The notes under the pieces are model-generated. The model searched no databases. It was not told the origin of the DNA and saw only the letters and a program-made list of their open reading frames with translations. Positions 6,580 to 60,176 of a DNA stretch of 64,000 nucleotides are shown here, one piece after another. Position numbers and translations under genes: made by a program. This DNA is from a virus: positions 7,757-71,756 of the IMG/VR virus record IMGVR_UViG_3300045988_104147; one strand, 5' to 3'. Position 1 is the stretch's first letter. Every line of letters begins with the position of its first letter.

Positions 6580-6607
6580 CCCCTGCTTTTAAGCAGGGGC
6601 TTTGTTA
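6580..6607 (+). terminator. hairpin terminator (cccctgc ttttaa gcagggg followed by T-rich run)
   Basis: 7-bp perfect stem in the 205-bp intergenic gap 6436..6640. Confidence 0.4.
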
Positions 6608-6640
6608 AAGATCGTAAAAAGAAGATTAAAATAATAGCTT

Positions 6641-6955: not shown

Positions 6956-6958
6956 AAA

Positions 6959-7411: not shown

Positions 7412-7422
7412 AATATAAAGAC

Positions 7423-8232: not shown

Positions 8233-8236
8233 GGGA

Positions 8237-8629: not shown

Positions 8630-8631
8630 TT

Positions 8632-9045: not shown

Positions 9046-9082
9046 GAAACATATGTAGTTATCATTTTTAATAACATGTCTT

Positions 9083-22770: not shown

Positions 22771-23240
22771 TGATAAGAAGTCATGGCTTATGCCAGGCTT
22801 GCAGGAGCAAAGAGTTGACTCTGAAGAAAAAAAACAGAATTACATCCATTAAAAACAGCAGCAAGAAGAAAAAGTTAGAGAACCCGGATTTATCCGGGTT
22901 TTTTCGTCTTATGTTGGAGGAGTTGGGTAGCATTCGAATGTCTATGACTGGTAAGGCTATTCATTTTCCTACAGTATGTAACGTCTGTCACATACTTCCG
23001 AAAAGGATATATAAGTCGGTTGCTACTTGCAGGGATAATATAGTTTTCCTACATGAATCGGAGCATACGGTATTCGACATGTATCTTGACAGGATGGAAT
23101 TTGATAAACTTGAAACAGAATTTCCTTTTGTGTGGAAGTATGCGGTAAAGAAGGTACTGGATATGGAAAGCAGGGGAATGATTAAAGAAAGAGGTAGATT
23201 AATTATTGAAATAATTAACAGATATGAGAAAACTTTATAA
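22725..23240 (+). CDS. zinc-ribbon protein (CERCGRK...CQAC)
   Basis: ORF track plus CxxC pairs. Confidence 0.45.
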   Translation: MEKKLYACERCGRKVMIRSHGLCQACRSKELTLKKKNRITSIKNSSKKKKLENPDLSGFFRLMLEELGSIRMSMTGKAIHFPTVCNVCHILPKRIYKSVATCRDNIVFLHESEHTVFDMYLDRMEFDKLETEFPFVWKYAVKKVLDMESRGMIKERGRLIIEIINRYEKTL

Positions 23241-36691: not shown

Positions 36692-37050
36692 ACAACAAAA
36701 GACGTAAGAAAATAGAGGATATTATTTCCAATTTGGAAAAGCATAAAACAGATCTTGAGTTTATCAAATCAAAGCTGTCAGAGGTCAGGCATAATCTGGA
36801 TTCAGCCAAGGATGATGTTGATATGATTTTAGACGAGGAGACAGAAGCAAGAGACAATATGCCGGAGCCGTTACAAGATACAGAAAGATATTATCAATCA
36901 GATGAGGCTGTAGCTAATATGGAGGCGGTTGTTGATGATATGGAAAGTATTGTAGGGGATTTAGAGAATGCGGTTTCAACCATTGATGATAAAATCGATG
37001 AGATAGAAACTGATATTATAGGAAATTTAGAGGCAGCCATAGGCGCATAA
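36688..37050 (+). CDS. hypothetical acidic coiled-coil protein
   Basis: ORF track. Confidence 0.45.
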   Translation: MNNKRRKKIEDIISNLEKHKTDLEFIKSKLSEVRHNLDSAKDDVDMILDEETEARDNMPEPLQDTERYYQSDEAVANMEAVVDDMESIVGDLENAVSTIDDKIDEIETDIIGNLEAAIGA

Positions 37051-37081
37051 TATAAAAATACAACCATAAAATTTAACACAA

Positions 37082-37117
37082 TATATTTGTATAGATATAA
37101 TACGATACATATTTTTG
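37082..37117 (+). promoter_or_regulatory. candidate Bacteroidota-type promoter: TTTG (-33-like, 37086..37089), then 20 nt, then TATTTTTG (TAnnTTTG -7-like, 37110..37117), 33 nt upstream of the KilA-N gene
   Basis: motif match in an AT-rich intergenic region; could be chance. Confidence 0.25.
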
Positions 37118-37149
37118 TATCGTATTATTTTTTTTATGTGTTATATTTT

Positions 37150-37884
37150 ATGAAAACAAATGTTACAATGGTATCAAAAGACCGAGAATTATTTGGCGTA
37201 ATAATTAAGCAGGACACTAAAACTTCGTTTATGTCCTTAACAGACCTTCAGGAAGCCTATACGAAGAAGAGGGTTGAGATGGGGTGGAATGAAAAGAGAA
37301 TAGAAAATATCCTATCTAATAAGGAGAGTGCGGAACGTGTTTACTATATCCTTGAAAAACAAGGATATAAGATAGAATCAGGATTTCCTGGTTTTATACA
37401 ATCTGTTGAAAAAGAGTCACTTATAAAAGTGATGAAAAAAATGGGAGCTTATAAGACAATGGGTAGAGGAGAGAATAGGAGAACTATGTGTAATCCATAT
37501 ATATGGGTGCTTGTAGCTATGGAACTAAACCCTATGTTGTATGCTGAGGTTGTTACGTGGTTAACAGATAAGCTTATCTTAAACCGAATAGAGGCAGGTG
37601 ATAAATACAATGTCTTATCAAGAGCTATATCAAGATTTCCGGATGCCGATTACTCCAAGATGGCTAAAGGTTTAAATTGGATTGTATTTAATGAGCATGA
37701 AAGCATGATAAGAAATAGGGCTACACAGGAGCAGTTGAAAGAACTTGAAACCCTACAGTCTAATCTTGCATTCTGCATAGAGATGGGAACCATCTCTTCT
37801 TTCTCTAATTTAATGAACATGATGAGGTCTATATATGTAAAGAAATGGGGAGAAGAGGCTGTAACTTCTAAAAACGTAAAATAA
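37150..37884 (+). CDS. KilA-N domain protein
   Basis: N-terminal region resembles KilA-N/APSES DNA-binding domain; start moved to MKTNVTM after a T8 tract. Confidence 0.45.
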   Translation: MKTNVTMVSKDRELFGVIIKQDTKTSFMSLTDLQEAYTKKRVEMGWNEKRIENILSNKESAERVYYILEKQGYKIESGFPGFIQSVEKESLIKVMKKMGAYKTMGRGENRRTMCNPYIWVLVAMELNPMLYAEVVTWLTDKLILNRIEAGDKYNVLSRAISRFPDADYSKMAKGLNWIVFNEHESMIRNRATQEQLKELETLQSNLAFCIEMGTISSFSNLMNMMRSIYVKKWGEEAVTSKNVK

Positions 37885-37885
37885 T

Positions 37886-38173
37886 ATGGGAGTAAAAGAA
37901 ATAAGAGAACTACTTAGACTCTACAATCTCGAACATAGTGTCGTCCAGAACAAAAACTCTGGGCGGTATTCTATTATTCTCCATAACAACATCATAGGAA
38001 CGAACGTGGATGGAGAGAAGGTAGTTGTGTTCAGAACCATTCCGGATGGAAGCAATACGTTCTCTATGGAGCGAAATAGATTCTATGAGGGGTTTGTAGA
38101 GGCTTTTGATGACGATAAGGCGATTGAAGCCGTAAGACAGTATTTTGAGAAAAACAGAAATGATAGGGTATAA
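37886..38173 (+). CDS. hypothetical protein
   Basis: ORF track. Confidence 0.4.
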   Translation: MGVKEIRELLRLYNLEHSVVQNKNSGRYSIILHNNIIGTNVDGEKVVVFRTIPDGSNTFSMERNRFYEGFVEAFDDDKAIEAVRQYFEKNRNDRV

Positions 38174-38225
38174 GACGAAGATGGATTATATTACTATCGA
38201 AATGAGGTAAAACAACGATAAAACA

Positions 38226-38783
38226 ATGGAAAAGATGGATGATAATACTAAAAATATCCTTTATCCAAAAGGATCTATTTTTCGCATATTGAAAGATGAT
38301 ATAATCAGTGCCGAATTTAAAGTCGCCAAAGGAGCTATAGCGGAGGCAGTATCAGACATAGAAGTAAATGATAAATATGCTGAGGTTTGTTGCAATGGGG
38401 AGACGTTCGTTATAGAAACGGATATTATGGGTATTATTCTTACCAAAGACCCCATAGAAAACAAATCGGTGAAAAATGACATCATAGACGACAAACTACG
38501 ATGGGATTTACTTCCTATGGAAGAGATTGAAGACATTGTAAGAGTCTATCATGCTGGCGCAAAGAAGTACGGACCTAACAATTGGCAGAATCTTGATAAC
38601 GGCTTTGAACGGTATCGTGCTGCGGCTGCCAGACACCTAATGGAATACATGAAAGGAGAAAGAATAGATTCAGATACAGGGTGTTTTCATCTTGCACAAT
38701 GTGCGTGGAACTGTATAGCTATGCTATGGTATGATAAGCACGGGAAAGGGTTAATACCATTAAATAAGGAGGAAAAGAAATGA
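38226..38783 (+). CDS. dATP/dGTP pyrophosphohydrolase-like domain protein (RWDLLP ... YHAGAKKYGPNNW signature)
   Basis: hallmark RWDLLP motif of the phage dNTP diphosphohydrolase family, read by eye. Confidence 0.45.
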   Translation: MEKMDDNTKNILYPKGSIFRILKDDIISAEFKVAKGAIAEAVSDIEVNDKYAEVCCNGETFVIETDIMGIILTKDPIENKSVKNDIIDDKLRWDLLPMEEIEDIVRVYHAGAKKYGPNNWQNLDNGFERYRAAAARHLMEYMKGERIDSDTGCFHLAQCAWNCIAMLWYDKHGKGLIPLNKEEKK

Positions 38784-39088
38784 CAAAAGAACAAATGATT
38801 CAACTGTTAGACACAGAGCTTGATGCAATGAACAAACACAGAAGTAATATTGAAAGAATTAAAAAGGAATATTTCGATTCTGTTTATGGATTCAAGAAGG
38901 GGGATAAAGTGAACGTTCTTTACAAACGTTCGAAAGCACCTCTTGTTGGTTTCTTCAAGAGCGTTCAAATCATGAATACTGGAACAGTTATATTTACAAT
39001 CCAGGAAGTTAATAAAGAAGGAAGACCTGGAAGAGGATCTTATTTGGTGTATGAAGGCGATTTAAGTGAAATCAAAAAAGTAGAATAA
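38780..39088 (+). CDS. hypothetical protein
   Basis: ORF track; SD aaggagg. Confidence 0.4.
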   Translation: MTKEQMIQLLDTELDAMNKHRSNIERIKKEYFDSVYGFKKGDKVNVLYKRSKAPLVGFFKSVQIMNTGTVIFTIQEVNKEGRPGRGSYLVYEGDLSEIKKVE

Positions 39089-39089
39089 C

Positions 39090-39611
39090 ATGATCAGAGC
39101 AAGATTTTATATTAGAAAAGACGACTGCGATAACGATTACCGTCCGGTCAAATGGCCTATAAAATATCCATATTGGTGTAGTGCAGAATCCAGTAATTCA
39201 TTTGTATTGGTGGCGTATGCTGAAGATGAAGACAGCATAAAAGAACTGTGGCCGGAGGCGTATGATATTAATGTCTTAGAGAAAGATACCGAAATTAGAT
39301 TCACATTAAGATTTCCTAAGCCGGAATGGTATGAATTATATGAAGAAATGTATGATACATTTGTGTGGATTACAGACACATGTTTGCAAGATGGTAAGAT
39401 AAGAAAAGTAAAAGCTAAAATAGAAGATTATGATGGTACTTTATTAGCCGACACCCCTAACCGGTTCACTCCTTATACGATAGGGTATCAAGCTTTTAAA
39501 AATAAAGAAGAAGCTTTGAAATATGTAGAGGAACAGAGAACGGATTTAATTAAGCATCTTAAGTTGCAAATACACGAACTTGAAAATCTAAAATTTAAAT
39601 GCGATGATTGA
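39090..39611 (+). CDS. hypothetical protein
   Basis: ORF track. Confidence 0.45.
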   Translation: MIRARFYIRKDDCDNDYRPVKWPIKYPYWCSAESSNSFVLVAYAEDEDSIKELWPEAYDINVLEKDTEIRFTLRFPKPEWYELYEEMYDTFVWITDTCLQDGKIRKVKAKIEDYDGTLLADTPNRFTPYTIGYQAFKNKEEALKYVEEQRTDLIKHLKLQIHELENLKFKCDD

Positions 39612-40862
39612 ATAATTTGATTATTTTACAAATAACGATTACATTTACGATATAAATCATTCAAATGAGATTAGTTGAAAGGCATATAGTTAAAGACAAC
39701 CGGTTTGAGGATATTTGCTTCAAATCCGGCTTGTTATATAATTATGTTCTTTACAACATTCGTCAAGGAGTCTTTTCTGGTAACTATTTAAAGGAATTTG
39801 ATTTATCAGACAAACTTTGCAAAGAAAACCAATTCGATTTCAGGAATTTACCTAATCATGTATCCCAACAGGTGATTAAACAGGTATTTAAAAACATAAA
39901 ATCCTGGATAAAACTCAAGAAGGATTTTGAAAAGAATCCTTCTAAATACGGAAATCATAGACCTCACCTTCCATCATACAAACAAGGTAAGAAACAAAAC
40001 ATGGTTGTTTTCACCAACTGCAATTGTAGGGTAAAGGGTGATAATTGTATTTATTTTGTTAAAGATATAATCAAACCTATCAAAACAAATGTAAAGAAAG
40101 ACGAACTAAAACAAGTTAGAATAATCCCTCAAGCTACATGTTATGTAGTAGAGGTAGTTTATGAAAGAAAGGAAACTGATCTTGGTTTAAACAAAGACAA
40201 TTTTCTTTCGATTGATTTAGGATTGAATAATTTATGTTCATGTATTAGTAATGTAGAAACTAATTCTTTCATTATAAACGGACGGGTTATGAAATCAGTA
40301 AATCAGTGGTACAATAAGAAGAAAGCTAAGTTGATGTCTTTTGTTGGTAATAAGGGAACTTCAAATAGAATAAGAAAAATTACTTTGTTTAGAAATTGTT
40401 GGATAGAAGACAAATTGCATAAAATCAGTAGATACATTGTAGACTTTTGTAAATCTAACAATATAGGAACAATCATCATTGGATTAAACAAAGAATGGAA
40501 AAACGAGATAAATATCGGTAAAAGGAATAACCAACATTTTGTTTCTATTCCTCATTCTAAATTGATTGATAAGATTGTTTACAAAGCAAATCTTTTAGGG
40601 ATAGAGGTAATTACTCATGAGGAATCTTACACATCAAAGATTGACCATCTTGCTTTTGAACCTCTAAAGAAACAAGAATCCTATTTAGGGAAAAGAAAGA
40701 AACGTGGATTATTCCAAAGTTCCGTTGGAAAGCTAATTAATGCTGATATTAATGGAGCTATAGGAATAGCAAGAAAAGTAGTCGGTGATTCTTTCATTGG
40801 AAAGATAATCGATAGTGGATTTGTGTTTAATCCGGTTAGAATAAATATTTTGTGATATAAGG
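39612..40862 (+). mobile_element. IS200/IS605-family tnpB-only element (IS1341-like), boundaries approximate
   Basis: tnpB ORF with a short AT-rich 5' leader that resembles the leader of the second copy; no tnpA. Confidence 0.35.
39665..40855 (+). CDS. tnpB: TnpB (OrfB_IS605) RuvC-like RNA-guided-nuclease homolog. RuvC D/E/D intact (SIDLG, HEESYTSK, NADINGA); zinc-finger cysteines absent
   Basis: split RuvC motifs in canonical order; 396 aa. Confidence 0.8.
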   Translation: MRLVERHIVKDNRFEDICFKSGLLYNYVLYNIRQGVFSGNYLKEFDLSDKLCKENQFDFRNLPNHVSQQVIKQVFKNIKSWIKLKKDFEKNPSKYGNHRPHLPSYKQGKKQNMVVFTNCNCRVKGDNCIYFVKDIIKPIKTNVKKDELKQVRIIPQATCYVVEVVYERKETDLGLNKDNFLSIDLGLNNLCSCISNVETNSFIINGRVMKSVNQWYNKKKAKLMSFVGNKGTSNRIRKITLFRNCWIEDKLHKISRYIVDFCKSNNIGTIIIGLNKEWKNEINIGKRNNQHFVSIPHSKLIDKIVYKANLLGIEVITHEESYTSKIDHLAFEPLKKQESYLGKRKKRGLFQSSVGKLINADINGAIGIARKVVGDSFIGKIIDSGFVFNPVRINIL

Positions 40863-41609
40863 TTGAATCTAATGAATAAAATGAATAATTTTAATAACAT
40901 TAACTACGCAGCAAAAGCCAGAAGAGCTTATTTGATAAACAATTTCGATAAGATTCTTAACAGCCTCAACACGCTTCATTCAACGGTTGAGACCATGACA
41001 TTATTTGTAAACGACCAGGCTTATAATTACATTCTTAAGCTAAAGGAAGTGGTTAAGGGCAGTCCTATGTATAAGCACAATATCAAGCGTCTTTTAAATG
41101 ATATGGACAAAGAGATAAAGAGGTACAATGCTTCTATCTACTACATAAATAAAGAGCGTAGTGAGGTTATAGCTGATATAACACAAGCGATGGAAGATTG
41201 CCTCATGCCATACATAGACGATCTGGCCGGCGCTATAAGGGCAGCCGTGTGGTCGAGGGGTGTGTCCGAGGAGCGGACGGAAGCGGCGGTACTGTCCCTA
41301 ATCGTATCCTCCTTGGCCACGACATCAGGCAGACTTATTTCAGGTGGATATCAGATCATGAAAGAAATGGGTGGTGGATGGGGTGGTAATCCATTTACGT
41401 TTATGAGCATTGATAAGATAAGACACTTATCTACATCATTATCTGATGCTATTACCGGTGGAGAAATAGCTCTTGAAGAAAAAGAAGCCAATGACATAAC
41501 TAAGGCAATGGATGTTTTTATTGAGAAAATGTCTGATTCGGATATTGTTGACAAGGTGATCAGCATACTCGAAGAGGCAGAACCTAAAAACAAGGAGGAA
41601 CGATCATGA
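40863..41609 (+). CDS. hypothetical protein (248 aa) bracketed by the two tnpB genes; contains a GC-rich patch
   Basis: ORF track. Confidence 0.45.
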   Translation: MNLMNKMNNFNNINYAAKARRAYLINNFDKILNSLNTLHSTVETMTLFVNDQAYNYILKLKEVVKGSPMYKHNIKRLLNDMDKEIKRYNASIYYINKERSEVIADITQAMEDCLMPYIDDLAGAIRAAVWSRGVSEERTEAAVLSLIVSSLATTSGRLISGGYQIMKEMGGGWGGNPFTFMSIDKIRHLSTSLSDAITGGEIALEEKEANDITKAMDVFIEKMSDSDIVDKVISILEEAEPKNKEERS

Positions 41610-41797
41610 ATTACTTAGATGGGTACGTAGAAGAGGTTCTTTCTGAGCCGTACTATGATGATTACGGCTCTGGGATTTTTAGGTGGTGGGTGAAAGTATC
41701 TTACGTTTGTGAAGGCATAGGAGCTGTCACTACCTTAATGTTTGATACGAGAGAAGAAGCAGAGGCTGTAAAACCAGGTTACAAATTTTTATGTTGA
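41606..41797 (+). CDS. hypothetical small protein
   Basis: ORF track; SD aaggagg; ATGA coupling. Confidence 0.35.
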   Translation: MNYLDGYVEEVLSEPYYDDYGSGIFRWWVKVSYVCEGIGAVTTLMFDTREEAEAVKPGYKFLC

Positions 41798-43150
41798 AAA
41801 TAATAGATTCTATTCTGTAATACAAATGTAATTCGTATCTTAGATATATGATTCATAGACAATATTTATAGTATTAAAAATCATGAGATTAGCATACAAG
41901 TTCAACATAGGAAACAATGAAAATATATCATCTCTGTGCAAGATTAGCAATAACTTGTACAATCAGGCATTATATATTTTCAGAGAAACACTTTCTAAAG
42001 AAGATAAGTGGTTATCCTATTTTAAACTTGATTCTATCATGAAGAATACCAAGAACTTAGATGGAAACATTAATTACAGATTACTAAAGGCTCAATGTTC
42101 TCAACAAGTTCTTCGTATTCTTGATAAGAATATAAAAAGCTATTACAAATCGGTCCAAGATTACAAAAAACATCCAAATAAGTATAAAGGGAAACCGGGT
42201 CTTCCAAGTTATAGGAAAAGAGGATCTGAGTTTAACATGTATTACACGAATCAGAATTGTAAGATTAAAGATGGGAAAATTGTTCTTTCAAAGGAACTTT
42301 CGATAGATATTCCTCAATATGAAAAGTATTCTGATTTGATTAAAGATTTTAAACAGATTAGAATAGAACCATTAGCGTGTGGATATAAGATAGAAATCAT
42401 TTATGAGGTAAAAGATACTGAAGTATCTAAAGGTAGGGAAGAAAAAGTTGCTTCTATTGATTTAGGAATAGACAATCTTGTAACATTAGTTAGTGAAGAT
42501 TTTACCTATCTTTTTAGCGGTAATTTTGTTAAATCATATAATCAGAGATTTAATAAAACACTTGCTAAATTAAATAGCATAAAGGATTTACAAAAGATAA
42601 AAGGAACAACAAAACGAATAAAGAAATTATATTATGATAAAGAACAGTACATAGAAGATGTCTTTCATAAAATCAGTAGAAAGATAGTTAATTTACTTAT
42701 CGATTCTAAGATAACAAAATTAGTTGTAGGCTATAACAAGGGATGGAAAACTGGAGTAAACATGGGAAAAAGAAACAACCAAAAGTTTACCCAAATCCCT
42801 TTTGCGAGATTAGTAAGTTATTTAGAATATAAATGTGAATTATCTGGTATTGAAATAGTTATTCACGAAGAATCATATACTTCAAAATGTGATTCATTGG
42901 CATTTGAGAAGATAGGAAAACATGATAGCTATTTAGGAAGAAGGAAGAAACGAGGATTGTTTCAATCTTCAGTAGGAAAACTCATAAATGCAGACGTAAA
43001 TGGAGCATTAAACATTATGAGAAAAGTAGTCGGTGATTCCTGTGAATCAATTTGTAGGATAATCGATAGAGGGTTATTGTTTAACCCGGTAAGGATTACG
43101 AATGTATTTTGTTAAGAAGGTGCATTCCGAGACTTATAAAGAAATGTAAT
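41798..43150 (+). mobile_element. second IS200/IS605-family tnpB-only element, boundaries approximate
   Basis: tnpB ORF with a related leader; no tnpA. Confidence 0.35.
41883..43115 (+). CDS. tnpB: TnpB (OrfB_IS605) paralog. RuvC D/E/D intact (SIDLG, HEESYTSK, NADVNGA); zinc finger reduced to one Cys
   Basis: C-terminal roughly 70% identical to the first copy, N-terminal half diverged. Confidence 0.8.
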   Translation: MRLAYKFNIGNNENISSLCKISNNLYNQALYIFRETLSKEDKWLSYFKLDSIMKNTKNLDGNINYRLLKAQCSQQVLRILDKNIKSYYKSVQDYKKHPNKYKGKPGLPSYRKRGSEFNMYYTNQNCKIKDGKIVLSKELSIDIPQYEKYSDLIKDFKQIRIEPLACGYKIEIIYEVKDTEVSKGREEKVASIDLGIDNLVTLVSEDFTYLFSGNFVKSYNQRFNKTLAKLNSIKDLQKIKGTTKRIKKLYYDKEQYIEDVFHKISRKIVNLLIDSKITKLVVGYNKGWKTGVNMGKRNNQKFTQIPFARLVSYLEYKCELSGIEIVIHEESYTSKCDSLAFEKIGKHDSYLGRRKKRGLFQSSVGKLINADVNGALNIMRKVVGDSCESICRIIDRGLLFNPVRITNVFC

Positions 43151-43182
43151 AGATTTTTATTTAATTTAATATTTTTCATAAC

Positions 43183-43662
43183 ATGGAAAAGAATTTAAAA
43201 CTCGTATGTCCAAAATGTGGCACCCCTCACCAGCCTCATTCTCCGCACACGATGGATGCAGATGGATTTGAAAGGTGTGAGATAAGAACTATCATGGAAG
43301 ACAAGGGATGGTGCTACGAATGCTCTTTTTGGCAAAATATGTACGACAAGCACAAAGACGATCCTGGATGGATTAGGATAGACGGTGAAAGCTGGGTGCT
43401 TAAGCCTATGGTAGAAAACGTACCAAACGGATGGAACAGCCTTGGATGTGGTGGAAGAAAAATGTATGTCAATATCGAAGGAAAAGGCATTGTTGCATCA
43501 AACAATTGCTGGTGTCAGGGTGATGTTTCGGATGCATTTAAGGATTTGATGCCTGATAATGCTACTTGGGCTACGAAGGAGGAATTTGACAAAGCCCCTG
43601 TAGTAGGATATATTATAGAAGGTATTGGTTTAGTTTTCACAGATAGGGTACATTTTTTATAA
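43183..43662 (+). CDS. zinc-ribbon protein (CPKCGTP...CYEC)
   Basis: ORF track plus CxxC pairs. Confidence 0.45.
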   Translation: MEKNLKLVCPKCGTPHQPHSPHTMDADGFERCEIRTIMEDKGWCYECSFWQNMYDKHKDDPGWIRIDGESWVLKPMVENVPNGWNSLGCGGRKMYVNIEGKGIVASNNCWCQGDVSDAFKDLMPDNATWATKEEFDKAPVVGYIIEGIGLVFTDRVHFL

Positions 43663-43718
43663 ATCAATTAAGGTAATTATATATCTCAATTAATTATTCA
43701 CTTTTAAAAATTATAGTT

Positions 43719-43883
43719 ATGAAAACAAAAGAAGAAAAACAAAAGAAATTTTTGACAGAATTTGAAATCAACGGGCGAAAATACGCTGGTGAAATATGGG
43801 CTACTTCTTGGGATGAGGCAGAAGATTTTGTTAAACAAAGAGCTGCAACAGAAGAAGTAGTGGGAGTTATTCCAAATGATTAA
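43719..43883 (+). CDS. hypothetical small protein (54 aa), last + strand gene before the strand switch
   Basis: ORF I translated by hand (MKTKEEKQKKFLTEFEINGRKYAGEIW...); below track cutoff. Confidence 0.3.
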   Translation: MKTKEEKQKKFLTEFEINGRKYAGEIWATSWDEAEDFVKQRAATEEVVGVIPND

Positions 43884-43898
43884 GGCAGTTATATATAA

Positions 43899-43937
43899 TT
43901 CTGCATATAGATGATAGTATAGAGTCTATATGCAGAA
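43899..43937. terminator. bidirectional terminator: perfect 12-bp inverted repeat ttctgcatatag / ctatatgcagaa with 15-nt loop, followed by TTGTTTT on +
   Basis: lies exactly between the convergent + and - gene blocks. Confidence 0.5.
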
Positions 43938-43942
43938 TTGTT

Positions 43943-44677
43943 TTAATTGTCGAACGTAACTGTCTCCGATGTTACCACATATTCACCTATACTTCCATAC
44001 GCTTTAGAATATAATTCAAGTTCTATATAAGCGGAATAGGTGGCATAGAAAGTGCCCTGACCCAACCTGGTTATAATAGGTCTGACTATTGATGTTAGGG
44101 TCAAATTTTGAAAGGATGCAGGAGAAGGCTCTGGTTCGATATTGGTTTTAACAAGTCCACAACCCCATGATGTATCTGAGCCGGTTTCGTAGATCTTATC
44201 TACAGGATCTCCTATTATCGTATCTGGGTACTCATGTTGCTCACTGGTGTAATTCATTACAATAGGATTATCATTGTTTACATTGTATTTTTTACCAGGA
44301 GCAGTATATGATATTTCACGATATGTTACATATTTCTTTTCTTGTTCTCTCACTGTAAACTGGTCAGGCAAATAAAGACGTATCAAAAAACCTAAAGAAG
44401 GAGATTCTGTTCTACCTATAATAAGTTTAATGTCATCCTTCTCTACAAGCTCTTTCGTAGATTCTGTTTGTTCGCTGATAGTCTCTTTTGTATTAGATGG
44501 GACTCCTCCTTGGATACTTATAGAACCCAGACGTTGTTTTGTGGAAAGAAAGGTAAATACACCACTTTGTGGAACAGTACCGACTATTTCATCATCTATG
44601 ATTACCCCCCCCCCTATACAGTTGCTAACTATTTGATATTCATATACTTTTAACGATGTTTCAAATCTTCTTCTCAT
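43943..44677 (-). CDS. beta-rich hypothetical protein (candidate surface or receptor-binding protein) with a G10 homopolymer at codons 22-25
   Basis: ORF track; poly-G encodes GGG in ...CIGGGVII... Confidence 0.5.
   Translation of the reverse strand: MRRRFETSLKVYEYQIVSNCIGGGVIIDDEIVGTVPQSGVFTFLSTKQRLGSISIQGGVPSNTKETISEQTESTKELVEKDDIKLIIGRTESPSLGFLIRLYLPDQFTVREQEKKYVTYREISYTAPGKKYNVNNDNPIVMNYTSEQHEYPDTIIGDPVDKIYETGSDTSWGCGLVKTNIEPEPSPASFQNLTLTSIVRPIITRLGQGTFYATYSAYIELELYSKAYGSIGEYVVTSETVTFDN
44605..44614 (-). repeat. homopolymeric tract C10 on +, i.e. G10 on the coding strand
   Basis: ten consecutive C at 44605..44614 in a genome of roughly 36% GC. Confidence 0.9.
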
Positions 44678-45135
44678 ATTCCTTTTAAGTAAGTATCAGG
44701 TGCAACAAAATTACTTATTGTCTTTATTATATGTATAGTATCTATAAAATATTTATCAACATCCATAGAAAGCTGAGGACGAAGATCTGAATCGTTTGTC
44801 TTATCTGTTATATAGAAATAGTACAGAACATCCTCCAGATAAAATGTAAGATAAATATCCCCTGTGACATTTCCATTATTGAAATAGCAATTGATGCCGG
44901 AACCGGATGGAGTCATATGGCAATCTATACTCTGGGTATCTCCCATAGTACACACGTAATTGGAACTGGCAATATCAACCGCATATTTTCCAACATTTAT
45001 ACCACCACTTTCTCTCGATCTCGTGGTAAGTATATGAACGGCATTTTTCCAAGTGGAAAGAGGTGCAGATATACTAACGGCGAAAACGGGAATTATCGTC
45101 TGAAATAAATCATATGACAAAAACCTTCTTCTCAT
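44674..45135 (-). CDS. hypothetical secreted protein (MRRRFLSYDLFQTIIPVFAVSISA signal-peptide-like N-terminus), ATGA-coupled to the downstream gene
   Basis: ORF track 44674..45225 trimmed to the Met that precedes the hydrophobic segment. Confidence 0.45.
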   Translation of the reverse strand: MRRRFLSYDLFQTIIPVFAVSISAPLSTWKNAVHILTTRSRESGGINVGKYAVDIASSNYVCTMGDTQSIDCHMTPSGSGINCYFNNGNVTGDIYLTFYLEDVLYYFYITDKTNDSDLRPQLSMDVDKYFIDTIHIIKTISNFVAPDTYLKGI

Positions 45136-45352
45136 TATTTTATTTTTTTGCAAGATAGCATTTTTTTTCATAACAAAAGAAACCAGTTCTCTATCATCGC
45201 TGACTGAGAACTGGTAAGAAAACAATTTCAGAAAAAATTAAACCTACATAACCTTTAAAGTAAGAACAAAAAAACGTATAGTCTACTCTTTGACAATGCT
45301 AAGATAGCATATTAGAGCCATATTGTAGTAATATAAGCCCAATATTCTTCGT

Positions 45353-48300
45353 CTACTTGTAGCTCACATCATCGTCTCCTTCTGAATCAGGAGTGGCACC
45401 GATGAAGAACATCATTGACTTGTTGTTCGTCTGCTGCCACCAATTATAGGCGCGTGCTACGTCTTCTGGTGTCTTGATATTATACCATTGTTTGATAAAC
45501 GTCTGTTTGGCGAGCTGCCTAAATAACTTAGACTCTCCTTTGTATGTACCGGATGTTACTTTATCAAGTGAGTAGTTCCTAAGATCGGTAAGATCCTTCA
45601 ACTTCCGTCCCATAACAAACGGGTCGTTAATGATATCAACCACATTAAGCTCCATAATAAATGGCATCTGTGAAGCTATTTCGTTTATGGTTCTGAATCC
45701 GACATAGGATCCAAATTGAGTAAGCCAACTTTCTTCGTTTTCATCATCATCACGCCATCCGGCAAGAAGCATAGATACGGCCTGCATGATAAGGAACGTG
45801 CCGGCATAGACACTGAGGCGTTTGAGATTAGTTTTTTCTACCTCATTCATATTGTCTTTATTTTCGTTCCAGGCATCTATGATGTTTTTCATACCAGACT
45901 CGGAAGCCAGGCTAAATGTTTTGGCTATCATATTCTTTAACGTAATTGACAACCCTTCCTCTTCTTGCATTGTCTGGAAATTGAAGCCACGTCTTTTCCA
46001 CAGACGTTGAGCTGCCAGCACCAGCCAGCCTCGGTGGGCGGTCATGAACCTGGCTATCCAGTTGCGCGATGCGGCAGTTCGGTTTTCTTCATTCAAAGAT
46101 CCGTTACATATCTGCGACAAGCTACGGACTTGATTCCTGGTTATAGCCATCTGGGTTTCAACTTCCTCAACAGTAACACCCGATCCCGGCTTTACAACCA
46201 CCTTTCCATCCACGACGTCTACCATACTCCATAAAGTACGATCTTTTAATGCGTTCCATTCTCTTTTTATGGTACTCTGTTCTTTATTGCGTTCTTTTTC
46301 CATCTTGAAATCTTGGAACGTGTAGAACCGACCTTTGTAATAACGAACATTGTCCATAGTAGCAATCATAACCTGCGGATCAAGAGGGTAGTTCAGGATT
46401 TCCATAAAAGCATACATAGGTGAACGCATTAAGGTCCTGGCCACTCTATTGTATCCGGCACCATACATACGATTTCGGATATTGAATATCCCCATTCTCT
46501 CACCTATGACATATAATTTGCTTTTCCTATCTATGTCTCCGGTTTCTGCTATACAAGATGGAGCAAGGCGTGAAAATTCAGCCGATGCGTATTTAAGGGA
46601 ATCTTTACTTATATACTGTCCTACGGCAGATTCCATGATGAGGTTGATATGACCTGTTAAGGCGCCGGTAGCTGCCACAAACGGGGACAGTGCCAAGTTC
46701 ATGACCGACATAAATCTTTCAACAGCCATCATAATTCTTGTAAGGTCTACCGTATATCCTCCGATGTTCACCGTAAGTTTTTTGGTGTTCATCCTAATGC
46801 CATAATAATGATCGTTGAAGAAGTCCCTGAACATCTGATATGCTTGGGTTGCTTCAGCCTTTTTACCACCTTCAAATTGTTTATTCAGTAACATCTGCTC
46901 CAGTCCTTGAGCGAGCTCTATAGACTTCTGCTTTTCGTTGTATAACGATGACTGCATCATAAGCATCGAATAAGAGTAGCCAAAATCGTGAGATACATCA
47001 TCTTGGTTCTCCAATTCATATATGTAGTATTTAGGTATAGACCTAAGTCTGTCTTCCGGATCATACACTTCTCCTTGCCTGGTTTTACCGTATAAAGAAT
47101 CGTCTACTCTGTCCAGGCACAGATCTGATACAAAATTACGAACCGTATTTTTGAAGTTAATACCCAATCCTTCTATACGTTCTATATCTTGTTTTGATAT
47201 CTGTGGAATAGCATACAGGTTCGGGCTCTGCTCTTTGTATAGATCAAGGGATTGTCTTTTTATTTCCTTGAGTTTTTGAATCATATTCCACTGCTCTACG
47301 TTTTTAGTAGCAACTTCATTACCGTCAGCATCATACTTGATACCAAAGTCATTGAAATAAGATTCATCACGATACAGGCTTTTCTTAGGCATTCGATGAC
47401 CATACCCATGATCTTTTACATAATCAGGATTACGGCCGTTATTTTCGGCTTCAGATTCAGCCACCCATGCCCTTGCAGGATCGAAAGACAGGTACGATAT
47501 GTTCATGCCATAATCTTGGGTGGATGTACCGTTTTGCACGTCCTTAACCATCTGCGCCACATCTATCTCACCTCGACCTATTTTGTCGATCATAGCCGCA
47601 TATCCGGTAGGCGCCATGCGTTTATAGTAGGAAAAGACCTGGCCCCTGGCAAATTCATTAACAATAGCATTAGCTTCTTCTACACCCTCTTCTCTTGTAT
47701 TATTTAAAAACAAGCTGGCCATCTTAGCATTAACAGCATTCCTGAAATCTCTACCGTCTAATTCTTTGCTTATACCAAGCTTTTCTGACAGGTAGTTGGT
47801 TTCAGATACGGTAAACAGATATCGGTTATCAGCAGCCTTAAACAGCTTATCCCTTAAAGCCTGAATCCTTTTTGCTTTCTTCGCCGTAGTATGACGTTGT
47901 ACGAACTTCCATTCCACTTCCTTGGAGTCAGCAAGAGCATTTAAATAAGACTGATTTACTTCGTTTTCGGCCTTACTGCTTTTAGTAAGGTACTTATCAA
48001 TATCTTCAAGACCCACCATCTTAGCATAATCTATTAAGATAGCGTAATCAGCTTCAATAGCTTCAGATGCGGCCCTAAAAGCATCTCTTTCAGATGAGGT
48101 AAATGTCGCTTCGTTAATTTCTCCGATATCAGCCACATCTCGGTTGTTTCCGATTATTTCCTTGATAATGGCCTTATTTTTTTCTATATCTTTCACAATC
48201 GAATCCACGTCAGTCGCATCTCTATCACTTGTCGTAGAACTAATGATATCATGCGCCATTTTAAGATACGAAGCCTTGTTATTTGATTCGGTGCGCGCCG

Positions 48301-51300
48301 ACTGTTCCGATTCTACGTCATTCCAAAATCGATCGTTGAATGACAGGTGACCTCCCAACATAAGCGTCTTCAACGCAGCTTCTCCTCCTGACTCGCTCTG
48401 GATCGTTCTTAATTTTTGCAAAAACGATTCTGATACAGTATTAGTGACATTATTTGATTCTTTTCTCCAAACTTCATTTATGGCTTGTATTTCTTTAGCC
48501 ATCTTAAGCTGGTCTCCGGTTTTTTCAACACGTCTGGTACCAACATATATGTATTCCGAAGCTGCTTCCTTACGTTGTTTACGAAGCAGTCCTTCTTCTT
48601 CGTAGTTACTACTCTTATAGTAGGCAACCTCATCAAAATTACCACCGCTATCAATAAAAGGCTGCCTCAATATCCGTTTTTGCCGGGAAAGAGCATTAAG
48701 ATACTCTTTAGTTGTTTGAGAAACCGGATATCCTAATTCTTCTTCAGCCTTTTTGTATATGGATTCCATTCTTGTGGCATAACTTTCGCTAAATTCCAGT
48801 TCCGAATTTTCAGCATCCCACTTTTCCATCTGTTCTGTATAGATCTTTTCCTGCTCGATGGTAAAAATATCGGTATTAACCCTATCAGACGATGGTTTGA
48901 ATTTAGCGTTTTCAGTAACCGTATTTCCATCCTTGTCAACTACTTCTCTTTTAAATACGTAATTACGGTTATTGTCAACCACATCATTTATTTCTTCTTC
49001 TGATATCTCTATGTTCATGGCAGTCGCAAACGCTCGCATCTGCGCCAGCTTCTTATTACGATCGTATTTAGCCATATCAAGAGCACTACGAAGGTAATTA
49101 GAAGTTTTGCCGTCTACTTTCTGAAGCAGTTTTTCAAATTCAGATTTGTTAAAACCATGCTTTTTAGCATATGCCAGGAAGTCGGATATGGCGGGCTGGG
49201 CATTCACCATCGCATTGTAATTGTCTTTGGCAATCATAGCTCCAAGAGCGTTATTGAACGGACTGGAAGAATGCTCTAATATACCGAACCACCTACTTAT
49301 CCAAGAAACATCGTGTTGAACCTTGTCAAAAAATTCTTTTACTCTCTTTACCTTATCTGCCGGCACATGAAGTTCGTTCATTAACTTGTCAAGCAACGTA
49401 CTTTCATCAAGATCTTGTACTGATTTAATATCAGACTGAATACCGTTGATGTCGGCAATGACGGTATTGATCCTATTTGTATAATCCTGCTTTTCACGCT
49501 CATCAAATTCGGTACTTCTGTTACGGATATATCCTCGAAGATCGTTCATGATCGGAAGAACCTGATTGTTGATAATATCTACGTTCTTTCGATCATTGGT
49601 ATTGAAGTGAAGCTTACCGTCTTTGGTATCACCATGAAGGATGGTGTTCACCACATTGCTTAAGTATCTGACCTGAGCTTCGGCTGTAGAGATCATGCTG
49701 TTCATGGCAGCCGCCATCTCATTCTTGTCTATTTCGGTCTCTACTTTATTTATCTTATCTTCTATGGTCTTAAGCTGCGCAAGGGTCATAGACGTAGTTA
49801 CAGCCCTATCAGAGCTTATCTGACGTAAGTCTCTTAATGTTTTCCTTAATGCCAGGATCTTAGACTCAAGAAACTTGTTCTTGTTCATAGAAGAAAGGGA
49901 GTATAATGTAAAGTCATTATCCTTTAACAGAGAAGTGTCAAATCCTTTATCTATGTCAGTAATGGCAAGATCACGAATGTTTTTAATAACGTTATTCAAA
50001 TCTTGTCTTTGAGTAGATAAAGCTGATTTAAGCCAGTTTACAATTCCAGAGAGAAGCTGCCGGACGCGCCCCAGGAAGGAGGTGGGCTCTACCGGCGCCT
50101 GTGCTGTGCCGGTCTGTATCTCCCTGGCGAGGATCTTTCCAAGAATTTCTCTCCTAACAGCATTATCAAGCTCAGCCCCTTCATATACCTTACCGTATGT
50201 ATTATAATACTGACCTGCATACTGGTTCCACTCTTCCGTACCTTCTACATCTTGCAGAACAGCCTCAACAGCATTCTGATCTCTGTATGCCTCTACAAGG
50301 AAGTGGGCTGTTTCTTCTACTAAATCAGATAAAGTAGCATCTTCACCAACTGCTATTACGTTATTAGCAATATCCGCCAATGCCTTAGCAGAAGGTTCGT
50401 GCCCGTATTTGGTTTGATACTTCTCTATATAATCGGTCATACCTATGACACTAACGCCCAACGTTTTCAGTATCTCGACAATAGAATTTCGTTGATCACG
50501 TTCCTGCCTGCTATAATCTGATACGATCTTAGCTTTAGTATCAGCATAAAGATCGTTGTCCTCTAATATGAATGAAACTACAAGCGCATCAAAATGATCG
50601 TACTTGGCGTCCAATTCATTGTATCTTCCTGACTTAAGATCGTTCTTTATCTGCTCTTTGCTAACCCTTTCCGTTCCTCCGGTGGCGAGCCTCATAGTCA
50701 CCTTACTGTTATCCAACGAGCTTATGGTTATCATACCTTGGTCGTTCATGGAAACATCGGAACCAAAATGATTACGGAGCTCGGTGTAGGATAAGGCTGA
50801 ATTGAAAAGTCTAATTTGTCCTGTATGACCTTCTCCTGTAAGATAATAGCTTCTTGTTTCAGGATCGAATATCTTAGATCCGGACAAAAGACCTTTCTTT
50901 ATAAGGTAGTTAATTATACCACCTTTTGTTGATAAAGAAGTAGAAGCAGAAGCGGTCATGACCGGTATAAAAGATTTGGGATTATTAAGAACATACCTTC
51001 CAGCTTTGTAAGTAATGTCTGCCACGCCATCCCAGGCAGATTCTTGAACGGTGCCTGATAAGAATCCTATTCTAATATCATTCCCGCCAGAGCGAAGAGC
51101 TTCTCCGTAATCTTCAAATAATTGACTACGATCGTTCATGAAAAACAAACGAGGCTCTCCGGTCTGATACGTTACACCCACAGGATTAGAATCTGTCTGT
51201 GGTAACTCTTCTGGGCTAAATATCTTAAGACCGTCTTTTATAACCATATAATTAACACCCTTATCCTGTACCATAGATACGGGAGTGAAGTCTGAAGATA

Positions 51301-51775
51301 TGGTATCTTGTAGATACTGCCCGGCGTCTATTCCAGGTCCTTCCGGTACGGAAATACTTGACGGGACCATAGCATCCACCAACATAATATTATCACCCAG
51401 ATTTTGGCTGTAGAATCCAAAGCCCGATTCTTGGATTTCATAAGGTGCATCTGATTTTGACACAAGAACAGGGTTACTCATCTTAGAAGCCTTATCCAGC
51501 ACCCTTTCCCTATAGGCTTCCGGAATAAGATCGATGTTGGATTTCACCTTATTGTAGGCCTGTTTATTAACAGGTACATTCCTTCTCCAGTCGCCAAAAG
51601 CCTTTAAGAACTTATTAGAAAATACGGTTTTAAAAACAGTAGTAGCCCGTTCCCTGTTCTCCATAAGAGGAATAGATGCTATTTTATCAAACAACATAGA
51701 CCTGTCCCCTGATCTGGTAGAGACAGAAACAACTTTCTTTTTATTATCTCTTTTAATAATACACGTTGATGTCAT
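45353..51775 (-). CDS. giant protein (2140 aa), largely alpha-helical; putative virion-associated / injected protein, function unknown
   Basis: uninterrupted 6.4-kb ORF; no catalytic motif recognised by eye. Confidence 0.7.
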   Translation of the reverse strand: MTSTCIIKRDNKKKVVSVSTRSGDRSMLFDKIASIPLMENRERATTVFKTVFSNKFLKAFGDWRRNVPVNKQAYNKVKSNIDLIPEAYRERVLDKASKMSNPVLVSKSDAPYEIQESGFGFYSQNLGDNIMLVDAMVPSSISVPEGPGIDAGQYLQDTISSDFTPVSMVQDKGVNYMVIKDGLKIFSPEELPQTDSNPVGVTYQTGEPRLFFMNDRSQLFEDYGEALRSGGNDIRIGFLSGTVQESAWDGVADITYKAGRYVLNNPKSFIPVMTASASTSLSTKGGIINYLIKKGLLSGSKIFDPETRSYYLTGEGHTGQIRLFNSALSYTELRNHFGSDVSMNDQGMITISSLDNSKVTMRLATGGTERVSKEQIKNDLKSGRYNELDAKYDHFDALVVSFILEDNDLYADTKAKIVSDYSRQERDQRNSIVEILKTLGVSVIGMTDYIEKYQTKYGHEPSAKALADIANNVIAVGEDATLSDLVEETAHFLVEAYRDQNAVEAVLQDVEGTEEWNQYAGQYYNTYGKVYEGAELDNAVRREILGKILAREIQTGTAQAPVEPTSFLGRVRQLLSGIVNWLKSALSTQRQDLNNVIKNIRDLAITDIDKGFDTSLLKDNDFTLYSLSSMNKNKFLESKILALRKTLRDLRQISSDRAVTTSMTLAQLKTIEDKINKVETEIDKNEMAAAMNSMISTAEAQVRYLSNVVNTILHGDTKDGKLHFNTNDRKNVDIINNQVLPIMNDLRGYIRNRSTEFDEREKQDYTNRINTVIADINGIQSDIKSVQDLDESTLLDKLMNELHVPADKVKRVKEFFDKVQHDVSWISRWFGILEHSSSPFNNALGAMIAKDNYNAMVNAQPAISDFLAYAKKHGFNKSEFEKLLQKVDGKTSNYLRSALDMAKYDRNKKLAQMRAFATAMNIEISEEEINDVVDNNRNYVFKREVVDKDGNTVTENAKFKPSSDRVNTDIFTIEQEKIYTEQMEKWDAENSELEFSESYATRMESIYKKAEEELGYPVSQTTKEYLNALSRQKRILRQPFIDSGGNFDEVAYYKSSNYEEEGLLRKQRKEAASEYIYVGTRRVEKTGDQLKMAKEIQAINEVWRKESNNVTNTVSESFLQKLRTIQSESGGEAALKTLMLGGHLSFNDRFWNDVESEQSARTESNNKASYLKMAHDIISSTTSDRDATDVDSIVKDIEKNKAIIKEIIGNNRDVADIGEINEATFTSSERDAFRAASEAIEADYAILIDYAKMVGLEDIDKYLTKSSKAENEVNQSYLNALADSKEVEWKFVQRHTTAKKAKRIQALRDKLFKAADNRYLFTVSETNYLSEKLGISKELDGRDFRNAVNAKMASLFLNNTREEGVEEANAIVNEFARGQVFSYYKRMAPTGYAAMIDKIGRGEIDVAQMVKDVQNGTSTQDYGMNISYLSFDPARAWVAESEAENNGRNPDYVKDHGYGHRMPKKSLYRDESYFNDFGIKYDADGNEVATKNVEQWNMIQKLKEIKRQSLDLYKEQSPNLYAIPQISKQDIERIEGLGINFKNTVRNFVSDLCLDRVDDSLYGKTRQGEVYDPEDRLRSIPKYYIYELENQDDVSHDFGYSYSMLMMQSSLYNEKQKSIELAQGLEQMLLNKQFEGGKKAEATQAYQMFRDFFNDHYYGIRMNTKKLTVNIGGYTVDLTRIMMAVERFMSVMNLALSPFVAATGALTGHINLIMESAVGQYISKDSLKYASAEFSRLAPSCIAETGDIDRKSKLYVIGERMGIFNIRNRMYGAGYNRVARTLMRSPMYAFMEILNYPLDPQVMIATMDNVRYYKGRFYTFQDFKMEKERNKEQSTIKREWNALKDRTLWSMVDVVDGKVVVKPGSGVTVEEVETQMAITRNQVRSLSQICNGSLNEENRTAASRNWIARFMTAHRGWLVLAAQRLWKRRGFNFQTMQEEEGLSITLKNMIAKTFSLASESGMKNIIDAWNENKDNMNEVEKTNLKRLSVYAGTFLIMQAVSMLLAGWRDDDENEESWLTQFGSYVGFRTINEIASQMPFIMELNVVDIINDPFVMGRKLKDLTDLRNYSLDKVTSGTYKGESKLFRQLAKQTFIKQWYNIKTPEDVARAYNWWQQTNNKSMMFFIGATPDSEGDDDVSYK

Positions 51776-57381: not shown

Positions 57382-57456
57382 ATCTCTAAACTAATACCAT
57401 GAAAAACTTAAATCTAAAAACTAAAGAACACACAAATGTATGAAAATGTATGGTTT

Positions 57457-57654
57457 TCACAAAGAATCTGTATCCTGTTCTTTGGTATGGTTAAGTACAT
57501 GGGATATAGTTCTGATACTTAATCCGGTTTGATTTTGTATCAGATTATAAATATAGGATTTTGAAACTACAGTTCTTAATTGACCTAAATCATTCATAAT
57601 GTTTTTATACATAAGATGAATGCTGTTGTTACGTTTGATGGTACTGATTCTCAT
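57457..57654 (-). CDS. small putative DNA-binding (HTH-like) protein
   Basis: ORF track; isolated between two hairpins. Confidence 0.4.
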   Translation of the reverse strand: MRISTIKRNNSIHLMYKNIMNDLGQLRTVVSKSYIYNLIQNQTGLSIRTISHVLNHTKEQDTDSL

Positions 57655-60156: not shown

Positions 60157-60176
60157 AGATAGTATAAAAATAGAAA

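Follow-up and report, generated by a model that had tools for sequence, protein, structure and literature searches.

Two tnpB genes in an epsilon crAss-like phage genome are probably independent, non-autonomous IS607-family insertions

We analysed a 64,000-nt window of viral DNA (IMG/VR record IMGVR_UViG_3300045988_104147, positions 7,757 to 71,756; all coordinates below are window positions) that carries two genes of the TnpB nuclease family, tnpB-1 and tnpB-2. In all probability these genes mark two independent insertions of non-autonomous IS607-family insertion sequences (IS) at gene junctions of an epsilon crAss-like phage. They would thus be ordinary IS load, which is the right one among three candidate explanations offered in a first-pass annotation of this DNA. 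By the same reading, and with the same high probability, each element consists of a left end, a tnpB gene and a right end that encodes a putative omega RNA (ωRNA), and the two belong to different subfamilies. The elements and their genes are as follows.

39607 to 39608, plus strand: core dinucleotide AT at the left junction of element 1, the end of the flank ...GCGATG[AT] on the side of the target and putative target-adjacent motif (TAM)
39609 to 40900, plus strand: element 1, assigned to the IS607 family as non-autonomous, subfamily 'type 1a'; 1292 bp comprising left end, tnpB-1 and ωRNA/right end, without tnpA
39609 to 39664, plus strand: left end and 5' leader of element 1, the left end being conserved among type-1 copies elsewhere
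39665 to 40855, plus strand: tnpB-1, encoding TnpB-1 (396 aa), which has no zinc finger
41805 to 43184, plus strand: element 2, assigned to the IS607 family as non-autonomous, subfamily 'type 2', with the first 27 nt of its left end missing
41883 to 43115, plus strand: tnpB-2, encoding TnpB-2 (410 aa), with one vestigial Cys (C336)

Both open reading frames (ORFs) lie where the first-pass annotation had placed them, and its TnpB call, for which it had proposed placement by profile hidden Markov models as the test, held at every curated Pfam and NCBIfam threshold. TnpB-1 and TnpB-2 scored 64.5 and 76.2 bits with OrfB_IS605 (PF01385, cut-off 30.5), 32.7 and 44.5 bits with Cas12f1-like_TNB (PF07282, cut-off 26.3), and 156.3 and 158.5 bits with guided_TnpB (NF040570, cut-off 100). 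The two proteins are 44% identical overall. Their divergence outside the C-terminal region, described earlier, is real (39% identity); the C-terminal 120 aa, put earlier at about 70%, measured 65%. The genes are AT-rich (GC 0.22-0.35 in 150-nt windows), and a tblastn search of the whole window found no tnpA, as the first reading had it, and no third tnpB. A scan for sigma-70 promoters and terminators gave no more sites than shuffled sequence (15 versus 18.8±4.1).

The phage context was also read correctly from the sequence. Positions 36000-46000 align in collinear blocks at 80-95% nucleotide identity with crAssE-Sib (deposited as csAssE-Sib, OR575929.1; L001 among our loci), a 151-kb epsilon crAss-like phage from the human gut. 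Two TnpB-family 'transposases' have been reported in only some members of the crAssE-Sib / Epsilonunovirus group (PMC11054128).

Comparison of related phages with and without the insertions, as the first-pass annotation had suggested, defined both the element ends and the vacant alleles. The segment corresponding to element 1 is missing from the syntenic region of crAssE-Sib, where the vacant allele reads …ACGATG[AT]TAATTACGCGG; the filled site in the window reads …GCGATG[AT]TGAATAATTTG…(1292 bp)…AATAAC[AT]TAACTACGCAG, its right flank also being given as TAACTACGC. Together with crAssE-Sib, nine other contigs have site 1 vacant, with the sequence ...GATG[AT]TAA(C/T)TACGC. The right end of element 1 (...TTTTAATAACAT) is identical to the base in copies elsewhere, and the left ends of type-1 copies at different sites share the consensus AT|(A/G)GT..AAT(T/A)ATTTG(T/A)TTATTTT... 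(the bar marks the junction); within its left end element 1 contains AAATAACGAT, which resembles the right-end terminus ATAACAT. The relatedness that had been noticed between the two 5' leaders is thus real and reflects the left ends of the elements. Both elements lie exactly at gene junctions, with AT to the left and a terminal AT of their own. The first bases of element 1 (39609-39611) supply the TGA stop of the upstream 173-aa gene (39090..39611), and in-frame ATGs at 40872 and 40881 in its right end now start the downstream gene, whose own ATG has been displaced.

The two insertions segregate independently. Element 1 occupies site 1 in 18 contigs, none of which has element 2 at site 2, and element 2 occupies site 2 in nine contigs, none of which has element 1. 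Neither is present in crAssE-Sib, both are present in this window, and the inner genes are present in each state. Among carriers of the site 1 insertion the element is 95-100% identical and the upstream gene about 85% identical in most; an element more alike than its flank is consistent with homing.

The genes between the elements belong to the phage:

40872 to 41609, plus strand: 248-aa ORF (listed as 40863..41609), homologue of crAssE-Sib WOZ57330.1, a native phage gene
41606 to 41797, plus strand: 63-aa ORF, homologue of crAssE-Sib WOZ57329.1, a native phage gene

The region of the 248-aa gene is 93% identical at the nucleotide level to positions 8220-9148 of crAssE-Sib, beside the homologue of the 173-aa gene. 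There the 173-aa homologue overlaps the start of the 248-aa homologue, the 63-aa ORF comes next, and no tnpB is found. Accordingly, the description of the two tnpB genes as bracketing a cargo ORF had to be dropped. The GC-rich patch reported inside this ORF does exist (GC 0.587 at 41200-41349 versus about 0.30 nearby) and, given the 93% identity to crAssE-Sib, belongs to the phage gene and to neither element.

Site 2 has a more complex history. Element 2 stands where crAssE-Sib has 236 bp encoding an 82-aa protein, a gene that is missing from the window. Its right end (...TTTTTCATAACAT) is common to copies at about 15 other sites and is fused to the ATG of a 159-aa gene. tnpB-2 does not, however, abut that gene as first described: its stop is at 43115 and the next ATG at 43183, and the 67 nt between them contain the right end and the last portion of the ωRNA scaffold. 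Copies at site 2 in L085, L089 and L124 read GAAAATAAT|ATGGTGCAAAATAACATTAAAAATAAT|AGATTC and retain the full left terminus, whereas the window reads GAAAATAAT|AGATTC and is short by the first 27 nt. Site 2 copies that share one left flank differ in their right flank (L124, L085/L089, L092 and the window). At this site (window 41797-41805 and 43184), and likewise between L099 and L100, the right flanks lie further and further into the 82-aa (or 95-aa) gene downstream. The changed right flanks always begin exactly at the right end, and in most cases they follow AT in the intact sequence; of those that could be located in crAssE-Sib, this holds for three of four. At site 2 a succession of deletions seems to have set out from the right end, the largest of them in the window copy, and such adjacent deletions look as if they were linked to a transposase or nuclease.

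The family assignment comes from relatives that still have a transposase. More than 150 relatives were found in IMG/VR, on gut phage contigs of 80-160 kb, and each window copy has protein-level relatives 97-100% identical to it at the same and at other sites. In four loci of the TnpB-2 type (L107, L114, L121 and L122; TnpB 80-86% identical to TnpB-2) and two of the TnpB-1 type (L064, 77% identical to TnpB-1, and MT835500.1) tnpB starts where an upstream ORF of some 200 aa ends. This ORF encodes an IS607 transposase, with NF033518 scores of 174 bits (L107) and 168 bits (L064) against a cut-off of 110 and a Pfam Resolvase domain. Every tnpA found beside relatives encodes a serine recombinase (in five viral loci, in L002 and in 25 of 80 cellular loci), with no dedicated search made for Y1 TnpA. 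We therefore assign the window elements to the IS607 family and not, as had been proposed, to IS200/IS605; the Pfam name OrfB_IS605 refers to the TnpB domain only. Since TnpA is absent from the window and present in close relatives, the window copies are best described as non-autonomous derivatives. Full-length TnpA was found in 5 of 159 viral loci versus 25 of 80 cellular loci, and tnpA remnants of 47-86 aa persist in six relatives (L108, L109, L117-L119 and L129). The nearest cellular relatives are in Hallella (Prevotellaceae), with TnpB 58% and TnpA 67% identical to the phage versions and a right end that finishes in the same …TTTTAATAACGT.

We then defined the ends across the family. Right ends of type-1 copies read …TTTTAATAAC(A/G)T and those of type-2 copies …TTTTTCATAACAT; the right ends finish in AAC(A/G)T, and the sequence beyond diverges by site; left junctions have the form flank-AT|(A/G)GT…. 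Vacant sites were predicted as left flank plus AT plus right flank and searched for in other contigs and in the window. For six sites besides site 1 they were found at 89-99% identity over 122 nt, giving seven filled/empty pairs that fit L-AT-R versus L-AT-[IS]-AT-R, and at four further sites the vacant allele has AT directly before the right flank. All 11 vacant alleles thus have AT where the element inserts, and AT makes up 10% of window dinucleotides. The base preceding it is G in the TnpB-1 subgroup (3/3 validated sites) and T in type 1b and type 2 (8/8), and the flank pattern is confined to the last three bases, (G/T)AT. A repeat search around the elements detected no terminal inverted repeats and no long direct repeats, only the homology of one tnpB to the other. 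Altogether, these alignments point to an IS607-like shared core dinucleotide without other duplication, the core being AT and not GG. Copies of type 1b (L031, L033, L044, L048, L063, L071, L076 and L078) end in AACGT, always followed by G. A TG core was considered for the GT-ended copies and rejected, since in the three left ends of type 1b the common sequence already extends leftward past any TG.

A right end could be recognised in 123 copies, which represent about 38 distinct right flanks, and 24 of 39 right flanks begin with G (P ≈ 4e-8, given that G has a frequency of 0.21). The terminal (A/G)T followed by this G makes ATG or GTG, which opens an ORF of at least 50 codons in 17 cases, and insertions often lie within the AT of the downstream gene's ATG. 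This gene-start bias may reflect either target preference or the survival of harmless insertions. At least eight contigs carry two copies. The window itself has four further sites, vacant here, that are occupied in other contigs: 23223-23224 (L107), 37885-37886 (L099), about 57385-57473 on the minus strand (L018) and about 60074-60158 on the minus strand (L087). Each has AT at the insertion point, in three directly before a gene's G (ATG). In many relatives the left end is mostly or wholly lost (for example L023, L031, L044, L048, L074 and L115) with tnpB and the right end intact, which leaves only a few bases between the upstream gene and the start codon of tnpB.

To judge from the alignments, each 3' end encodes a conserved structured RNA that is ωRNA-like. 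The predicted features are:

40771 to 40900, plus strand: predicted ωRNA-1 scaffold (RNAalifold), overlapping the last 85 nt of tnpB-1, with an AU-rich 3' tail
40901 to 40920, plus strand: predicted guide of ωRNA-1, TAACTACGCAGCAAAAGCCA, corresponding to codons 2-8 of the native downstream gene
43019 to 43184, plus strand: predicted ωRNA-2 scaffold, with the architecture of ωRNA-1 plus a hairpin across the stop codon and a hairpin before the terminus
43185 to 43204, plus strand: predicted guide of ωRNA-2, GGAAAAGAATTTAAAACTCG, corresponding to the 5' coding end of the 159-aa gene

RNAalifold was run on aligned diverged copies, of which the final 200-220 nt were used, and returned a common architecture for both subfamilies. 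Three stem-loops, two within the coding sequence and one around the stop codon, lie inside a closing helix that pairs AGAAAAGUA with a UA.UUUU close to the 3' end, and type 2 has extra hairpins. Paired cells of the alignment could pair in 97.5% (type 1) and 97.1% (type 2). For type 1, 32 cells had changed on both sides versus 12±2.6 in shuffles (0/500), with 2-4 in slid controls; for type 2 the count was 9 versus 2.8±1.6 (0/500), and slid controls overall gave 0-4. A covariance model, R1, built from type-1 sequences alone scored ωRNA-1 at 141.8 bits, by construction; its one other match in the window was 43019-43165, with 64 bits (E = 2e-9). The covariance search for guide-RNA scaffolds at the 3' ends that had been called for thus found one per window tnpB. 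R1 likewise matched once at the 3' end of each tnpB, both in the 55 type-2 loci, all of which were hit, and in the Hallella elements, and gave no match in the TnpB-free stretch of crAssE-Sib. Third-codon-position conservation where coding sequence and ωRNA overlap is modestly raised (0.60-0.78 versus 0.52-0.57, over 17-20 codons), which hints at the overlap. A search of Rfam, with the whole window at gathering score and 39500-43300 at E ≤ 5, found no ωRNA, RAGATH-18 or group I intron family, and the only matches were chance microRNA and small nucleolar RNA hits; RAGATH-18 is a motif reported as an IS607 ωRNA.

The predicted guides match vacant alleles of relatives. Guide 1 is found 20/20 directly after ...gatgat in three contigs with the site vacant (L089, L091 and L092) and with 1-2 mismatches in seven other vacant alleles. 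Guide 2 is found 20/20 after ...aataatat (L015) and ...aataagat (L008, L009 and L013), in contigs that do not have element 2.

We next considered whether the proteins look like active nucleases. As first reported, D/E/D motifs are present in both: SIDLG of RuvC-I, invariant throughout the family (D184 in TnpB-1, D193 in TnpB-2), HEESYTSK (E319-320 and E329-330) and NAD(I/V)NGA of RuvC-III (D361 and D371). We aligned a family profile to AsCas12f structures. IDLG and NAD correspond to the RuvC-I and RuvC-III Asp, both at the canonical position. HEESYTSK is not, however, the ordinary RuvC-II it had been taken for: the canonical 'mEDL' aligns to 'vvG(Y/L)NK', with Gly at the canonical Glu position and no conserved Glu, and the Glu pair preceding YTSK, whose first residue is nearly invariant and whose second is invariant, occupies the alternative glutamate (Ealt) position. 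An 'alternative glutamate' arrangement with Gly in place of the canonical RuvC-II Glu has been described (PMC10711439; PMC10691335). By analogy with the published Ealt clades, this Glu would complete a retained D-E-D catalytic triad.

The earlier reading of the cysteines was borne out on recount: between EESYTSK and NAD, TnpB-1 has none and TnpB-2 has one, and where AsCas12f has the cysteines of its zinc finger (CSEC…CRAC), the aligned family sequence is K(C/I)D(S/H)L… and …QSSVG. The missing finger is not a peculiarity of this phage, however. When 1.84 billion cluster representatives were searched without bias, CxxC was absent from 124/124 evaluable top representatives and the alternative Glu was present in 123, so that to lack the finger is the norm of a very large clade. 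Cellular relatives from Bacteroidota, Bacillota, Cyanobacteria, Chloroflexota, Helicobacter and Asgard archaea likewise have no zinc finger and the alternative Glu, which implies that the loss is ancient and clade-wide. On the evidence of these alignments, zinc-finger loss together with the alternative RuvC-II Glu is a trait of the whole clade and not decay within the phage. Some large TnpB branches without a zinc finger are on record (PMC10691335), and the published Ealt search pattern demands CxxC…CxxC (PMC10711439).

An AlphaFold2 model of TnpB-2 (predicted local distance difference test score 79) matches AsCas12f, ISFba1 and ISDra2 TnpB and mimivirus Fanzor2; for the TnpB fold of the ISDra2 / IS605 type, the Foldseek hits were 8h1j and 8exa at E about 1e-13. 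A phmmer search of TnpB-2 against PDB sequences gave an AI-designed nuclease as its sole match, and Cas12f was reached only via the family profile. Relative to homologues, dN/dS is 0.05-0.12 for tnpB-1 and 0.05-0.17 for tnpB-2, which indicates that both proteins are under purifying selection. Because RuvC-I has D-L-G and not DPG, these are not 'pro-Fanzor' or Fanzor proteins, though Ealt is present. Nor, with catalytic residues intact and invariant, are they nuclease-dead regulators of the TldR type; a guide of that class would be aimed at a host promoter, and the predicted guides here equal the adjacent phage sequence.

Several observations weigh against our interpretation or complicate it. 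Any precise insertion would by its nature produce part of the match between guide and vacant site, and we infer from sequence that the ωRNA is expressed, where exactly its 5' end lies, how long the guide is and what the TAM is. The gap in identity between element and flank could equally stem from ordinary mosaic recombination among phages. Copies of type 1b have AT at the left junction but finish in GT on the right, also at sites whose vacant allele has AT; this mismatch misfits a simple core-dinucleotide model, and it means that the downstream start codon changes from ATG to GTG. Left ends are truncated in many copies. Finally, the source of transposase for mobilisation in trans is uncertain because full-length TnpA is found in only 5/159 viral loci and MT835500.1.

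If the window elements behave like studied IS605 and IS607 elements, TnpB with its ωRNA would cut the vacant allele, in which a TAM with ...(G/T)AT as its last bases directly precedes the 5' end of the downstream gene. Such cutting could follow excision or strike a co-infecting relative, and recombinational repair from a filled genome would copy the element in (homing); in a lytic phage this would amount to RNA-guided homing between co-infecting genomes. Element 1, which has kept both ends, could in addition move in trans via the TnpA of a full-length copy, while element 2, having lost its left terminus, could spread only by homing or ordinary recombination. Homing, cleavage, TAM and expression are proposed here by analogy, with mechanistic precedent from IS605/IS607 TnpB (bioRxiv 10.1101/2023.11.20.567912; PMC13565253).

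Going further, we tentatively suggest, as a possibility that we hold with rather less than even confidence, that this AT-core IS607 subfamily is a parasite of epsilon crAss-like phages that spreads mainly without a transposase. TnpB-ωRNA would then act as an RNA-guided free-standing homing endonuclease, cutting vacant gene-start junctions (…AT|G…) of co-infecting relatives and being copied in by recombination, and the nested right-end deletions would be by-products in the form of genome remodelling.

Four other explanations have to be set against independent IS insertion. The one that survives best, though we consider it unlikely, is that these are phage-domesticated RNA-guided nucleases, kept for a benefit to the phage such as excluding co-infecting relatives or regulating genes, and no longer selfish. 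The strong purifying selection would fit this, as would the absence of TnpA from about 97% of phage copies, the many copies that have lost the left end and kept tnpB and ωRNA, and guides that perfectly match vacant alleles of co-circulating relatives; homing endonucleases are also known to mediate phage competition (in work cited in PMC13565253). However, presence is polymorphic at each site examined, there are about 38 sites, and no conserved partner gene was seen among them. Among the copies examined the guide position is always taken by the DNA that happens to adjoin the right end, with no fixed target recurring from site to site, and the intact catalytic residues set these proteins apart from TldR-type regulators. 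Phage benefit and selfish homing can coexist, and sequence alone cannot separate them.

It is quite improbable that the elements are inert, decaying IS remnants without current activity. That the window has no tnpA, and that element 2 is truncated on the left and adjoins a deletion on the right, might suggest so; but neither ORF is shortened, the catalytic residues are invariant, dN/dS is 0.05-0.17, compensatory changes keep the ωRNA helices, and near-identical copies (95-100%) occur in diverged backgrounds.

We give hardly any credence to a composite-transposon-like unit, also raised in the first-pass annotation, in which both tnpB copies would jointly mobilise the 248-aa and 63-aa ORFs as cargo. 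Related tnpB genes in the same orientation do flank 0.9 kb of non-IS sequence. The intervening ORFs are native, though, and lie at 93% nucleotide identity in the same place in crAssE-Sib without either tnpB; the elements belong to different subfamilies with unlike left and right ends, element 2 has no left terminus, and with 18 contigs carrying element 1 only and nine element 2 only, all four occupancy states exist, which excludes such a unit as well as duplication in place. An ancient in situ tandem duplication of one tnpB followed by divergence, the 'old duplication' once proposed from the C-terminal identity (65% versus 39% in the remainder), is next to impossible: the copies are 44% identical, fall in different subfamilies, occur separately and each have 97-100% protein relatives at the same and other sites, and the C-terminal identity peak coincides with the RuvC core and the overlap of coding sequence and ωRNA.

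For annotation, independent insertion of IS607-family elements means that the labels 'cargo' and 'degenerate nuclease' can be dropped, since the genes between the elements belong to the phage. An AT core with (G/T)AT flanks in a subfamily of phages and Prevotellaceae would widen the range of targets and putative TAMs for compact TnpBs (396-410 aa) without a zinc finger. The natural filled/vacant pairs with perfectly matching guides offer a ready system in which to ask about TnpB-driven homing, and insertion within the first two bases (AT) of a start codon, after which the right end recreates ATG or GTG, illustrates how such elements may persist in tightly packed phage genomes. What is new here is modest: an AT-core IS607 subfamily that has undergone expansion in epsilon crAss-like phages, mostly as TnpB-only copies.

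Other features were seen elsewhere in the window, two of them differences from crAssE-Sib. At 38907-39074 the window has 167 bp where crAssE-Sib (6396-7689) has a 1.1-kb DNA (cytosine-5)-methyltransferase gene, and at 37087-37884 it has an extra 265-aa ORF without a Pfam match where crAssE-Sib has about 48 bp, an insertion/deletion difference. The gene at 38226-38783 matches PF18909, a dATP/dGTP diphosphohydrolase N-terminal domain (93.9 bits), and has the same annotation in crAssE-Sib; enzymes of this type occur in phages that replace a canonical DNA base. GC and AT skew change sign around 44000, where gene orientation goes from plus to minus, and a 2140-aa ORF (45353..51775, minus strand) corresponds to the crAssE-Sib 'structural protein'.

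Finally, we compared the elements with known systems. They resemble the 'Ealt' (PMC10711439) and 'RIIr' (PMC10691335) clades in having Gly at the canonical RuvC-II Glu position, an invariant Glu pair directly before YTSK, six residues ahead of the first zinc-finger Cys position, and canonical RuvC-I and RuvC-III Asp; they differ in having D-L-G and not DPG in RuvC-I and in having no C4 zinc finger at all, and the likeness is one of motif arrangement and not of a named tree branch. With ISDra2 and other IS605-type TnpBs, which are paired with a Y1 HUH TnpA, they share the TnpB fold, an ωRNA encoded by the right end and, presumably, the logic of a TAM-dependent guided nuclease. They differ from these in the serine recombinase of their relatives, the position of the Glu and the lack of a zinc finger, and sequence identity is only about 16%. 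The TnpB matched in crAssE-Sib itself, of the group in PMC11054128, is 38% identical to TnpB-2 and lies at another locus, and that work gives no IS607 affiliation, element ends, ωRNA or target sites. T4-like free-standing homing endonuclease genes (Seg, Mob) are similar in being small, polymorphic nuclease genes wedged between conserved phage genes, with the nuclease-free allele of a co-infecting phage as predicted target; here, however, recognition would be by guide RNA and not by protein, and homing is our proposal by analogy.

The closest likeness is to IS607 elements such as IS607 of H. pylori and CboIStron of C. botulinum. Most of these use a GG core, with TAMs of TGGG, AGGAG or GAGGG (PMC13565253; bioRxiv 10.1101/2023.11.20.567912), whereas the window subfamily has an AT core (with GT right-end variants) and AT-rich (G/T)AT flanks. 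Unlike CboIStron the window elements have no group I intron, and no Rfam family was found at either tnpB 3' end; their replicon is a crAss-like phage genome, and the window copies have no TnpA. In other respects the correspondence is close. The TnpA of full-length relatives (helix-turn-helix plus resolvase domain) lies upstream of tnpB and overlaps it, there are no inverted repeats and no target duplication past a shared 2-nt core, the 3' end encodes a putative ωRNA with stem-loops followed by a flank-derived guide, the target motif coincides with the putative TAM, and TnpB-only derivatives occur in both.

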